This document shows, piece by piece, positions 59,394-63,851 of a DNA stretch of 64,000 nucleotides (positions within the stretch are counted from its first letter, which is position 1; each line of letters opens with the position of its first letter). The stretch is taken from contig CAXXFK010000012.1 of the NCBI GenBank assembly GCA_963663965.2, positions 1 to 64,000 of the forward strand, in the 5' to 3' direction. A program made the translations under genes and the position numbers. Source of the stretch: Sedimentisphaerales bacterium. GTDB lineage: Bacteria; Planctomycetota; Phycisphaerae; Sedimentisphaerales; SM23-30. The notes beneath the pieces were generated by a model that saw only the letters and a list, made by a program, of their open reading frames with translations, was not told the origin of the DNA and ran no database searches.

Positions 59394-60797
59394 TCAATCC
59401 AACACCTTTTCCGCCTTGACAATCGCCACCCCCTCCTGAAACGGCTCCACCGCTACAATCCCCTCCACTTCCGTCTCAAAAGGAGTTTCGTTACCCAGGG
59501 TATCCACCACATATGACTTCCCTTCCCGCTTCCCCCAGGCCTTGCCCTCACTGAACGTCCCCAAGTACTGATAAATCGGCCGGATAACATCCTTTCGATC
59601 AAAATCACACACCCCATAACACCCATCTTTCCGGTATCGAATAAATTTCCCCTCCACAATCCCGCAGCAAAACATCCCATCCTCCCCTTTAAAAATAAGC
59701 TTCCCCTTCAGGTCAAATACCAGACTTTCCAGTGGCTCATCTTTAGCACATAAGATTCCCCATTCTGTCAATAATACCCGGTTATAAACAGGCTCAACAA
59801 TATAATGCCCCTTTTTATCGATAAAACCGCGTCTGGCCATGGCTCCAATTCCTGTTGACATTGTCAGTGGACTTGGCAAATCCGGCCGGTCCACCAAGAC
59901 CTCCGCCACGCCATATCTAAAAATTGGAACAAGTATGACCCGGTCTTTCAATTTGACAACCTCAAGCGTTTCGCAATTAATAAAGCCGGAATAATGCTCA
60001 TTGGGATCATCCCCATGATCTTTTGCATAAAAAGCAATCCCATTCTCGATAGTATGGATATAGGAATAGAACGGTTTGATCACCATTTTTCCCGTTTTAT
60101 CCATCAAGCCCCAATCCCAACAGGTTTCGTCAAAAAGACGTTCTTCCGGGGCATCGGGATGCAAATAGCCCACCGGACACAGCCCCGCGGAAAAATACCC
60201 GCTGGAATCCCAATCTCCCCTCAACACCACATTGCCTTTGGTATCCAGATATACGAGTTTCTCATCAATTGCTCCTAATGCCAATCCATCCTGAAATGGC
60301 TCAAGCCAATCATAAATAAAATCAACGATCTCTTTTCCCGTTTTATCGATTATGCCCCACTTACCCCCCTCCTTTTTAACCGGAGCAAAACCTTCCGAAA
60401 AGGATCGCGCTTCGTCATACAACAAAGGAATAATCAATTTCCCCTCGGTATCGATATACCCACAATACCCACCTCTACCTACTAACGCCCGGTCTTCGAT
60501 AAATCCTAACGCAGAGTCATATGGTAGCGAAACCACCACACTATCACGGACCATCATACAATTTTTCTTCCCACCCATAACTACATTGACTATGCCACCT
60601 TCTAAAAATCGAATAGAATCGTATTCTAATGGCAATACCCAATGCCCCCCGCTATCGACGATTCCATAACGATACTTACTGACATAGCGGGGCCGCGGCG
60701 GGGTATAGTCGTTTTTTTTGTCCGCATTGTCGCCCCCCGGCAACAAGCCAAAACATGACAGCAAGATATATTGAACGATTTTCGTTGTACTGTTCAT
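59394..60797 (-). CDS. Exported WG-repeat protein
   Basis: Repeats such as GYIDTEGKLIIPLLYDEARSFSEG and WGIIDKTGKEIVDFIYD. AAGGAG RBS. Confidence 0.9.
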   Translation of the reverse strand: MNSTTKIVQYILLSCFGLLPGGDNADKKNDYTPPRPRYVSKYRYGIVDSGGHWVLPLEYDSIRFLEGGIVNVVMGGKKNCMMVRDSVVVSLPYDSALGFIEDRALVGRGGYCGYIDTEGKLIIPLLYDEARSFSEGFAPVKKEGGKWGIIDKTGKEIVDFIYDWLEPFQDGLALGAIDEKLVYLDTKGNVVLRGDWDSSGYFSAGLCPVGYLHPDAPEERLFDETCWDWGLMDKTGKMVIKPFYSYIHTIENGIAFYAKDHGDDPNEHYSGFINCETLEVVKLKDRVILVPIFRYGVAEVLVDRPDLPSPLTMSTGIGAMARRGFIDKKGHYIVEPVYNRVLLTEWGILCAKDEPLESLVFDLKGKLIFKGEDGMFCCGIVEGKFIRYRKDGCYGVCDFDRKDVIRPIYQYLGTFSEGKAWGKREGKSYVVDTLGNETPFETEVEGIVAVEPFQEGVAIVKAEKVLD

Positions 60798-60875
60798 GAT
60801 AAACTCCTTCGGCAACAGTCTCTATCTCACGCGCTAATCGAGTACTTTCCATTAACTCCGATTGGCATAATCCCG

Positions 60876-62282
60876 TTATTTTGATCCATATTTTTGAAAG
60901 CTGTATTGATACAGCGGCAAATACGGATTCGCAGCCTGCCGCAACATCAACTCCACCGAAACATTCATTTTACTCAGATTCATAACAAAATCCGCCCGCT
61001 TCCGCGCTTCGTAGATTTCGACTGGATTAAGAGCCGCTTCGAGATCTTTGATAGAAATATTTTTTTCCTGTGCCCGGGCCATCAACTTGTCTGTTTTTAA
61101 TCGATCCCGCTTGTCATCATCCATAATGACATAGTACCATTTAAGCAATTCTATGGCATCCTTGGGTGGATATTTATACTCTGGTATTTTTCGAAACAAT
61201 TTGTCAACATCAACCATATTGGGGAGTAGATATTGCCACAACATTTCATATTGCGCTTTTTTATCCCCCAAGTGGGCCCCAAAGTATTTGGCCTCTGTCA
61301 CTAGTTGTTCATAATATTTCGGTCCTGCCAGATCAATTAGCAAATCGGGCCGTCTCGCCATCAAAGTATCCACATCATCCATGGAAATCGAGGTATTCGA
61401 CAACGACACATAGCGTAGATTTTTCATTTTTTCCAACTGATCCAGTATCGCTGGAGTAATCATGGTATGGTCCAGCGTGAGCACCTCAAGACGATCCAGC
61501 AGAATAATATTCTCAAGATGATTATCGGTAATATTACTGTTGGTCAGTAGCAATCTTATTATACCGCTTCCTGTCATATTATTTACAAAATCAGTTACCA
61601 GCGTTGTATGCTGCAAATCCAGCGTTTTCAATGCCCCCATATCCTTGACAATATTGAGGCCAGAACCTGTAATTTGCGTATCACTGCAATTGAGATATTC
61701 AAGCTGGCGTAACGACCCTATCGCTCTCAAGTCAACATCATTACAATCTTGAGGCAATCCCAGATAGCTTAAGCCTTCAAGCAATCCGATATCCTGCCAG
61801 GTCAGAGATGACATGGGAATGCTAAACAAATCCAGATACTGCATACGCTTGAAAGCTGCCAATGTTTGAATTGCCGGCATAGGAACTTTGTCAACTGGGC
61901 ATTTCTGAATAAATGACCAGTCATCTCCGGCGCTGATATGTATTGAATAAATAAATGACTCGATATGCCGTTGAGCAGATTCTTCTATTGGAGATAGCTG
62001 CACAAGAAGTATTTTGTCACAATCTAGAAATATTTCATTAGTAACCTTCTGGAACTGCTGCAGAACTGCCACTTCTTCATTATCCAAGCCAGATTCAGCC
62101 AATTCATTCGGTGCTCCATAAGGTGATATGCGAACAAATTCTCCGCACTCTGGTGTGACAACACCTCGTATATGATATTTTCTTTCAGGCGCATTCCAGT
62201 CCTCAACCCCATTGAAAACAATAGCGGACCAGAGAAATGATGGAGACTGAATAATTATGATCAATAATAGCATCAACCTCAT
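60876..62282 (-). CDS. Exported leucine-rich-repeat protein
   Basis: Signal-like N-terminus; ~24-aa LxxLxLxxTxIT repeats. Confidence 0.87.
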   Translation of the reverse strand: MRLMLLLIIIIQSPSFLWSAIVFNGVEDWNAPERKYHIRGVVTPECGEFVRISPYGAPNELAESGLDNEEVAVLQQFQKVTNEIFLDCDKILLVQLSPIEESAQRHIESFIYSIHISAGDDWSFIQKCPVDKVPMPAIQTLAAFKRMQYLDLFSIPMSSLTWQDIGLLEGLSYLGLPQDCNDVDLRAIGSLRQLEYLNCSDTQITGSGLNIVKDMGALKTLDLQHTTLVTDFVNNMTGSGIIRLLLTNSNITDNHLENIILLDRLEVLTLDHTMITPAILDQLEKMKNLRYVSLSNTSISMDDVDTLMARRPDLLIDLAGPKYYEQLVTEAKYFGAHLGDKKAQYEMLWQYLLPNMVDVDKLFRKIPEYKYPPKDAIELLKWYYVIMDDDKRDRLKTDKLMARAQEKNISIKDLEAALNPVEIYEARKRADFVMNLSKMNVSVELMLRQAANPYLPLYQYSFQKYGSK

Positions 62283-62284
62283 AA

Positions 62285-63337
62285 TTATCTCCTTATTACT
62301 CTAAATAAGATTTTTTTTCTACTGACACCAATCATATCATTATATTTTGACCAATCTTCTTCCCTACCAGTTCGATTATTACGGCCACCAGCATCGGAAT
62401 AATCAACATTGCTAATAATAGTTGCATCGATTTCTTGATTACAATTCCATGATATTTTGACTTTAAAATAACCTTCCGATATTAATTTACCTCCAAAATC
62501 AGGAACATTCCACTTTGGATATTTATAATCCGGATGAAGATATTCTGGGGTAGACAGAATTTCGGGGTATTCTTGATATGCATAGTCTTTATTAAGATAA
62601 TCGGCATCACCAAATACGGTATAATCCCCAGTAGAATACAAAGAAAATCGAGTATTTATTAAAATTGCGCCTTTCGAACAGCAATTGGATTGATTAACAA
62701 AATTTTTATCAATGAGAGCTGCATAGTAAGGTGATCGATAACTATTTTTCCATTTATTATCATTTTGACGAGTACTAATACGAACACCCGTAGGACCAGC
62801 CGCTTTATTCTCTTGAATCGTAATTGGAGGCAGATCATCAAACATTTCTTCAAATGTACTTGTAGTTCTCTCGAGCTGGCGAACAAAGGATACATTTTCA
62901 TATCGAGGTGATATTATGTAACTACTATCTTTACAATCCTTAACATACCAATATGCTGTTTTATTCATAACAGAATAAAGGCCTGCATTGTTATCAACAT
63001 CATCTAATACTGCCTGCTCTTTTTCATCCATTCTAAGGGCAGTACTCATCCAATATCCACTAATACACTTTTTCCCATCAGAACACTCAGTTAAATTAGC
63101 AACCGGTGTTCCAACCGCTTCAATCGTAAAAAATCCTAATGCATCCAACCGATTCAATGGCCGCTCTTGGACATAGCCATACAAATCCATCCCGTCACGA
63201 TACCCCATCTTGTCCCGCTGCATAAACCGGCCCTGCTCGGGATTGTACATACCATAACACCAGCCCTGACAGATCAACAGGACCAGAATAAGCCTGATCG
63301 CGGTTTTGCTTAATATCTTCATCTTCTGAATATCCAT
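62285..63337 (-). CDS. Signal peptide + Rhs-associated core motif + unknown C-terminal (toxin-like) domain
   Basis: YNPEQGRFMQRDKMGYRDGMDLYGYVQERPLNRLDALG matches the Rhs core C-terminal signature. No YD repeats. Confidence 0.85.
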   Translation of the reverse strand: MDIQKMKILSKTAIRLILVLLICQGWCYGMYNPEQGRFMQRDKMGYRDGMDLYGYVQERPLNRLDALGFFTIEAVGTPVANLTECSDGKKCISGYWMSTALRMDEKEQAVLDDVDNNAGLYSVMNKTAYWYVKDCKDSSYIISPRYENVSFVRQLERTTSTFEEMFDDLPPITIQENKAAGPTGVRISTRQNDNKWKNSYRSPYYAALIDKNFVNQSNCCSKGAILINTRFSLYSTGDYTVFGDADYLNKDYAYQEYPEILSTPEYLHPDYKYPKWNVPDFGGKLISEGYFKVKISWNCNQEIDATIISNVDYSDAGGRNNRTGREEDWSKYNDMIGVSRKKILFRVIRR

Positions 63338-63383
63338 TCATGCCTTCCTTAATATATCTGTTTTCAATACTTGACTTTGAACT

Positions 63384-63413
63384 ATTTTAGAGGCCACACC
63401 CCACATATATCAA
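63384..63413 (-). promoter_or_regulatory. Candidate sigma70 promoter for the mini-Rhs gene
   Basis: TTGATA-N18-TAAAAT; AAGGAAGG RBS downstream. Confidence 0.5.
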
Positions 63414-63452: not shown

Positions 63453-63851
63453 TTACCAAGTAAAATCAACATCATTTCTGACTTTTTCCGATAATTCCTT
63501 ATAACTTAAAATCGAACGCCTACCATCACCCCATGTTACCATGTACTTTCGGATAAAATATCTATTTATACTTCCAGGAATTTGGGAACATAATAACACT
63601 TGATCATTGGATTGCCATGCATCAGGGTAATACAAAATCTTTTTACTTGAAATATCTTGAAGCTGGTCAATGCTTTCGGGTACGCTTCCATTATTATCAA
63701 CAAAAAGCCTGATACCTGATACAAGTAAAGAATGATAAGCAGACATTGAATTGTAAATATTAGTTTGCAGTATAGGTACAATAAGTGCTCCAACAATTAT
63801 TATCACGATCAAACAAAAAATACTTTTTTTAATAACGCTATTCATATACAC
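63453..63851 (-). CDS. Small AT-rich single-TM hypothetical protein, pilin-head-like
   Basis: N-terminal TM, GIRLFVDNNGSVPESIDQL, VTWGDG. Confidence 0.7.
   Translation of the reverse strand: MYMNSVIKKSIFCLIVIIIVGALIVPILQTNIYNSMSAYHSLLVSGIRLFVDNNGSVPESIDQLQDISSKKILYYPDAWQSNDQVLLCSQIPGSINRYFIRKYMVTWGDGRRSILSYKELSEKVRNDVDFTW

Follow-up and report, generated by a model that had tools for sequence, protein, structure and literature searches.

A shell-less mini-Rhs family in Planctomycetota, with a predicted signal peptide and half an Rhs core, is paired with a putative PF13369 cysteine enzyme

Rhs/YD toxins and TcC proteins (YenC2 4IGL, TccC3, Rhs1 of PMC8636562, the teneurin-like 9IFO) share a homologous core with two Asp motifs, followed by a variable C-terminal tip and a downstream immunity gene. 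PMC8455502 gives R650, D663 and D686 as the autoproteolysis residues of YenC2, and mutation of the equivalent Arg is described in PMC13018210 as reducing cleavage. Orphan Rhs-CT/immunity modules consist of a short core remnant with a tip, occur with immunity genes in tandem arrays and recombine with local long Rhs genes. In the Neisseria MafA-MafB-MafI system, as presented in PMC3482391, a signal peptide and a conserved N-terminal module (MAFB-N/DUF1020) precede a polymorphic tip, a non-polymorphic membrane-anchored partner, the lipoprotein MafA, is encoded directly upstream, and immunity is encoded downstream. Lasso-peptide leader peptidases, described in PMC10885120 as transglutaminase-like cysteine proteases (C96), are encoded beside a precursor with a conserved leader and a variable core, with an invariant Thr at -2. 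For PF13369 (Transglut_core2, SirB1-like), PMC10318531 states the function as unknown, and the transglutaminase domains mentioned in PMC3482391 are only inactive ones, in fusions with Rhs toxins. The literature searched, which has subscription papers outside its coverage, held no account of the architecture or the enzyme pairing described here.

The window, meaning the whole stretch of DNA analysed, covers the opening 64 kb of contig C12 in a genome of 7.24 Mb. Its query gene (Table 1) encodes a leader, the second half of an Rhs-associated core (here called the stub) and a variable tip; proteins of this build are called minis below. Model TIGR03696 scores 34.5 bits on the query (cut-off 32.5), with residues 30-68 on profile positions 37-75 of 76, a match that covers the second half of the core only. 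The motifs D42-K-M-G and D65-A-L-G have 19 residues between them, as a first-pass annotation had reported, and the D42-D65 spacing of 23 equals that of D663 and D686 in YenC2. Both motifs are degenerate, and Lys follows the first Asp in only 1 of the 137 library minis introduced below. The same annotation had read a signal peptide, about 280 residues of Cys-containing sequence and an absence of YD repeats, PAAR and VgrG, and these readings hold. The leader has a basic N-region, a hydrophobic peak of KD 3.2 (9-residue window) and C27/G29 at -3/-1, a pattern that predicts signal cleavage between G29 and M30; past the leader, a hydropathy scan detected no further hydrophobic segment. The frame is open from stop to stop, with only 29 residues and no YD repeats, PAAR or VgrG ahead of the core, and a Pfam search of the protein matched no family, MAFB-N/DUF1020 included. 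By comparison with the site in PMC8636562, the tip is predicted to be freed by a cut after D-A-L-G-F69.

Translation more likely starts at M1 (MDIQK...) than at M6, where the first pass had placed it, because AAGGAAGG is placed 5 nt ahead of the start codon ATG at 63337. The ribosome-binding site claimed for the gene is present; the promoter of its own claimed alongside is weak, because the scanned region is full of similar sites (33, against 25.1 +/- 4.3 in shuffles). The suggestion that the query is a fragment of a longer Rhs gene was considered and rejected, as the frame closes 29 codons ahead of the core and the next gene upstream is an unrelated 132-aa ORF.

Table 1. Coordinates of the query gene, its parts and its neighbours (window positions unless a contig is named).
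Feature	Position	Strand	Basis
Mini-Rhs gene, 350 aa (signal peptide, half core, tip)	62285..63337	-	ORF and TIGR03696
Predicted Sec/SPase I signal peptide, residues 1-29	63251..63337	-	family -3/-1 pattern, YenC2 alignment
Second half of Rhs-associated core, residues 30-69, with D42 and D65	63131..63250	-	TIGR03696
Variable tip, 281 aa, 6 Cys	62288..63130	-	one relative found (P0116)
Ribosome-binding site AAGGAAGG, 5 nt 5' of ATG	63343..63350	-	sequence
Sigma-70-like site, match 10/12, weak against background	63384..63413	-	motif scan
132-aa membrane-anchored protein; candidate immunity gene of the second mini-Rhs	63453..63851	-	ORF, locus layout
Second mini-Rhs, 279 aa, just outside the window	C12:64046-64885
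LRR protein with signal peptide, 468 aa; candidate immunity or accessory	60876..62282	-	Pfam
WG-repeat protein, last gene of the island	59394..60815	-	Pfam

The query lies in a low-GC island (GC 0.32-0.46, against 0.49 genome-wide) whose genes are, in order, an LRR protein (504 aa), the second mini-Rhs, the 132-aa ORF, the query, an LRR protein (468 aa) and the WG-repeat protein. A 96-aa gene of the Cdd1 family (PF11731, 59039-59329) is found right behind the island. The 468-aa LRR gene begins 2 nt after the query stop, and LRR immunity proteins are listed in PMC3482391. Its product is the best immunity candidate for the query; it is perhaps accessory, because LRR genes also occur upstream of minis at both loci.

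The query tip has a single relative, that of another mini-Rhs, P0116, which is 32% identical over the whole protein and keeps five of the six Cys. A word-index search with the query tip and a search with the P0116 tip returned self-matches only, an Atlas search with the query tip gave no usable match, and two metagenome scans gave no confirmed locus. For the structure search that the first pass had proposed for the tip, a PDB profile search gave 0 matches; a single-sequence AlphaFold model (pLDDT 31) was set aside.

Core matches in this genome number 32, and five of these (two on C12, three on C15) consist of a signal peptide, a half core and a different tip. Full-core true orphans are present in the same genome, and among the 32 matches no gene ending just before a stub, as would supply a shell in trans, was noticed. 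Two orphan cores (C40:177922-179064 and 183204-183908) share a near-identical in-frame insertion of about 30 residues, which follows the Y-Y-Y-R-L-R-M-Y strand and precedes the G-R-F motif.

Beyond this genome, a 16-sequence profile was run against 1.84 billion representatives; the best 150 matches were taken and 146 parsed. A hydrophobic region stands directly before the stub in 137 of the 146 (median length 271 aa), a count that shows the size of the family and not its share, because the search profile favours the mini architecture. These 137 library minis have Ala at -3 in 103 cases and Ala or Gly at -1 in 129. Fetched loci contributed 56 distinct minis and 135 canonical cores, after removal of 11 rows with short upstream context, and the two groups separate cleanly. 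The mini tips, 158 in all, form 119 BLAST clusters, and the many paralogues with divergent tips that the first pass had anticipated are thus found both in this genome and in the library. The minis thus have the conserved N-terminal module and hypervariable tip that mark polymorphic toxin systems.

Pfam families were found on only 18 of 121 scanned library matches, so toxicity is a prediction for most tips, and wholly so for that of the query. The assigned mini tips are peptidases (M35, M91, C25, TGL), Tlde1, cell-wall hydrolase, SLT, PG-binding, PLA2, DUF6765, AMOP and Lnb_N, and none of those assigned in the 121 matches is a nuclease. The 106 canonical tips include three HNH-type nucleases, along with envelope-acting domains. 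A close downstream ORF follows 51 of the 56 minis, 39 of these ORFs having a hydrophobic N-terminus, and in two clusters homologous tips have homologous downstream neighbours. At one locus (L024:323-8525), a mini-Rhs and its small neighbour lie directly upstream of a type II secretion-like cluster, in which an ATPase, a platform protein and pseudopilins were recognised by eye.

A free N-terminal Trp is required by the Het-C/phospholipase C/S1-P1 fold. The pattern W-x4-H occurs exactly at +1 after DPxG-x in 12 of the 158 mini tips, and at positions 2-30 in two. HxxxDxxxH, a motif that PMC3482391 ties to Het-C, phospholipase C and S1-P1 nuclease, is present in nine of these 12 tips against 2 of the other 146. 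Weak Pfam matches of W-x4-H tips are to DUF6765 (3/9) and Het-C (E 0.035). One W-x4-H mini was modelled at pLDDT 47, with nothing found by Foldseek at E<=0.001 and 0 matches in a PDB profile search; since the structure searches are empty, the phospholipase C/S1-P1 reading rests on the motifs and the weak Pfam matches.

Minis resemble Rhs/YD toxins in the homologous core (profile matches to known Rhs/TcC cores at E 1e-7 to 1e-5), the variable tip, the downstream immunity-like gene and the tip families in common. They differ in lacking the YD shell, the outer half of the plug and a T6SS adaptor, in having a signal-peptidase site where the catalytic Arg would be, and in having a dedicated partner enzyme. 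With neither shell nor Arg, they fall outside canonical Rhs. Orphan modules share with them the short core remnant, the tip, the tandem arrays with immunity-like genes and the recombination with local long Rhs genes; the minis differ in their conserved signal peptide, RBS, fixed mature N-terminus and obligate-looking partner gene. The purpose-built leader, present in 137 of 146 parsed top matches, places them outside this class as well.

In a profile alignment to YenC2 647-690, G29 of the query falls on R650 and D42 and D65 fall on D663 and D686; the R650 position is thus taken by the residue predicted to end the signal peptide (-1). Arg occupies this position in 124 of 135 canonical cores. 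The 56 minis have Ala (37), Gly (14) or Arg (5), and the 137 library minis have Ala (92), Gly (37), Arg (7) or Ser (1). Both Asp and the final D-x-x-G are kept in 135 of the 137. The site is probably still cut, because the final D-x-x-G is kept and W-x4-H tips start exactly at +1. P1 and P4 are distributed around it in minis as in canonical Rhs and do not separate the two, so the +1 register of the tips may have been inherited by recombination. A subgroup (L127, L140, L151, L124/L161, L063:7809, L207) keeps the Arg and has a signal peptide whose end lies three residues further upstream, with sequences such as A-R-G-R-M-Y and A-R-H-R-V-Y; these are possible intermediates that still self-cleave.

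Clustering of neighbouring genes brought out a single conserved gene, which immediately precedes the mini in 20 of 56 rows (18 whole, two fragments). Its product, of 300-500 aa, has an N-terminal membrane anchor, a PF13369 transglutaminase-like domain and TPRs; of 16 partner proteins examined, 15 matched PF13369 at E<=0.1, the best of them at 5.5e-9, and Atlas clusters agree. The triad C124/H150/E-D165, assigned by sequence pattern, is complete in 32/32 aligned proteins and in 120/120 top database homologues. The system outlined by the first-pass annotation was incomplete in missing this partner, which is not encoded in the window.

Searched alone, the enzyme is found in 42 of 301 genomes of the class, with 66 matches; the tally of 42 genomes includes G311, which enters no other count. 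Seventeen matches were already known from mini-selected loci and 42 were inspected, leaving out the own-genome fragment, G112, three contig-edge matches and two G311 matches. A stub-core gene, recognised 35 times by profile and six times by eye and regex, lies directly downstream at 41 of these 42 further Phycisphaerae loci, the exception being L237. The same holds at 10/10 strong enzyme matches in other Planctomycetota and at 2/2 enzyme matches in 301 genomes from the phylum to which a Verrucomicrobiae MAG belongs. Seven distant PF13369-like homologues had no stub-core cargo in the 570-1160 nt downstream (0/7); in one distant homologue that bears the Cys, an Rhs core lies on the upstream side instead. 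The partner clade differs from these seven in its association with stub-core genes, and from PF13369 at large in an extra N-terminal domain. In the reverse direction, 16 mini-bearing genomes among the matches listed comprise 13 with the enzyme, one with a contig-edge fragment and two incomplete MAGs without it; the enzyme search gave no match in mini-carrying G180 (88% complete), G187 (84% complete) and G614. At L234:334-3022 (- strand coordinates) an open frame of 896 codons ends with the enzyme; it may be a fusion, or else a long frame that is non-coding.

The genome of the query carries a single intact enzyme gene (C15:178132-179151, 339 aa), immediately ahead of a mini; the product of this gene groups with an enzyme from an Anaerohalosphaeraceae (Planctomycetota) MAG in a well-supported clade. 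The genome also has a second, truncated copy beside transposase-like genes; by eye, IS66-like transposase genes abut this copy at the end of the C15 array (L001, C15:171684-174808). No partner enzyme gene occurs at the C12 locus, so the query would be processed in trans. Eight matches to secretins and none to VgrG turned up in this genome, so Sec plus a secretin would be the route available to the query.

Enzyme and cargo vary together. Among 65 pairs, scored with labels set partly by eye and with 12 rows left out, 46 have both an enzyme anchor and a cargo signal peptide, 17 have neither and two are discordant (L160, L235), giving agreement in 63. Signal-less cargo often starts M-Y-D-P, M-G-Y-D-P or M-S-Y-S-P in the same register. 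Pairs of anchor-less enzyme and signal-less cargo (L224, L225, L226, L210, L211, L214, L215, L223 and others) look like a cytoplasmic version. On the enzyme tree, from a quick IQ-TREE search, signal-less pairs occupy several places (five changes); only two independent pairs sit on well-supported branches, both concordant, a test that is under-powered at p 0.5. One four-member enzyme subclade (SH-aLRT 100) goes with stubs that start R-D-P-G, and an enzyme clade with SH-aLRT 99 includes ultra-short stubs, R-Y-x-D-G-M-N, that lack the first Asp. A stub with neither Arg nor first Asp cannot be an Rhs autoprotease, which makes these stubs the strongest hint that the partner cuts.

The explanation we favour, and hold to be slightly on the probable side of even, is that the mini-Rhs is a Sec-exported, shell-less polymorphic toxin whose Rhs-core stub is a leader cut in trans by the PF13369 enzyme. 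The protein would be exported by Sec and lose its signal peptide, at G29/M30 in the query; the 40-residue stub would then likely serve as a leader bound by the membrane-anchored PF13369 and TPR cysteine enzyme, which would cut after DPxG-x and free the variable tip. Both minis at the window's locus would use the single intact C15 enzyme gene in trans, and the freed tip may leave the periplasm through a secretin. DNA homology retained between the stub and nearby long Rhs genes also allows tips to be exchanged by recombination. The lasso-peptide leader peptidases are a precedent for such an enzyme. Points against it are the missing enzyme gene at this locus, the mini-carrying genomes that gave no enzyme match, the two independent pairs behind the anchor and signal-peptide agreement, with L160 and L235 discordant, the P1 and P4 residues that look as in canonical Rhs, and the degenerate motifs of the query. 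The Sec-exported minimal toxin family of the first-pass annotation agrees with this as far as the widespread architecture in toxin-immunity arrays goes; its further statement that the family keeps only the self-cleavage motif is not supported, given the replaced Arg, the missing outer plug half and the members without the first Asp.

It is unlikely, to our reading, that the stub is still an aspartyl autoprotease in which the free alpha-amine left by signal peptidase or a partner residue stands in for Arg, while the PF13369 protein would do no more than chaperone or anchor the mini, as MafA does for MafB. Such a mini would explain why both Asp are so widely kept (135/137), why the mature N-terminus is fixed one residue past the Arg position even in signal-less members, why Arg persists in 5 of 56 minis and why some mini-bearing genomes gave no enzyme match. 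Self-cleavage is nevertheless doubtful because the Arg that it needs has been replaced by the -1 residue of a signal peptide. The upstream motif of the plug is present in 1 of 56 minis against 113 of 135 canonical cores, so that its outer half is absent, and the spacing between the two Asp exceeds 40 residues in 40 of 135 minis against 5 of 112 canonical cores. In one clade the first Asp is gone altogether, and a mere chaperone fits poorly with a triad complete in 120 of 120 homologues.

The triad does not, on sequence, tell a protease from a ligase. PF13369 lies within the transglutaminase-like fold, the partner is membrane-anchored with a TPR tail, and Zhang 2012 (PMC3482391) proposes surface anchoring for inactive Rhs-fused transglutaminase domains and for MafA; a transpeptidase or transglutaminase might thus join the mini or its tip to itself, the wall or a surface protein for contact-dependent display. 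We consider this quite improbable, as the 17 pairs of anchor-less partner and signal-less cargo fit wall display poorly and no conserved acceptor gene was seen among the neighbours.

Mini stubs are closest to the long Rhs cores of their own locus (ranks 1-2 of 112 at L108, an identical peptide at L011), as fits an exchange of tips by recombination. Together with the 11 tip clusters common to minis and canonical Rhs and the frequent position of mini arrays behind long Rhs genes, this closeness could mean that minis are an expressed reservoir or in-trans cargo whose tips count only once in a long Rhs. That is very unlikely, since a silent store needs neither conserved signal peptides nor a dedicated partner enzyme, and many partner and mini loci (L110, L017, L063) have no Rhs shell nearby. 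The long Rhs protein upstream of three minis at L108 (1314-7316, 2001 aa) has a hydrophobic N-terminus of its own, and proteins like it may be Sec-exported too. Least probable of all, a slim prospect, is that the tips are secreted enzymes that act on the envelope of the producing cell or serve in feeding, switched on by leader removal: the recognised mini tips are indeed peptidases, wall hydrolases and phospholipases without a nuclease, where canonical Rhs has 3/106 of HNH type, but hypervariable tips in tandem tip-small-gene arrays and low-GC islands, homologous downstream genes behind homologous tips, and tips shared with Rhs toxins fit toxin-immunity pairs.

Set beside the other known systems, the minis and their partner resemble a polymorphic toxin system and are closest in layout to MafA-MafB-MafI and closest in their proposed chemistry to the lasso-peptide leader peptidases. 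Minis share with Maf the signal peptide, conserved N-terminal module and polymorphic tip, the non-polymorphic membrane-anchored partner directly upstream and an immunity-like gene downstream. Where Maf has MAFB-N/DUF1020 and a lipoprotein, minis have an Rhs-core remnant as the module and a predicted cysteine enzyme as the partner, and anchor-less, signal-less versions exist. With the lasso system they share a transglutaminase-fold cysteine enzyme encoded beside a precursor with a conserved leader and a variable part, and an invariant residue at -2, which is Gly in minis. The mini partner differs in belonging to another Pfam family, in its protein-sized and mostly periplasmic cargo, and in an activity that is predicted; no RRE or cyclase was seen at mini-Rhs loci.

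More broadly, the chances seem evenly divided on whether planctomycetes have taken Rhs apart, dropping the shell and self-cutting, reducing the core to a 25-40-residue leader and adopting a PF13369 maturase for the tips. The same reading, held just as evenly, would include hundreds of interchangeable tips and both a periplasmic version (anchor and signal peptide) and a cytoplasmic one (neither). If true, an autoprotease motif would have decayed into a recognition leader for a separate enzyme, applying RiPP-style leader and peptidase logic to polymorphic toxins, and a bacterial PF13369 clade would gain its first testable function; a small leader and a specific protease would make a simple two-protein assay. 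The family would also offer a pool of more than 100 unassigned envelope-acting toxin domains with cognate immunity genes, and polymorphic toxins would have a new route of delivery and activation, in a phylum where systems of competition have received very little study.
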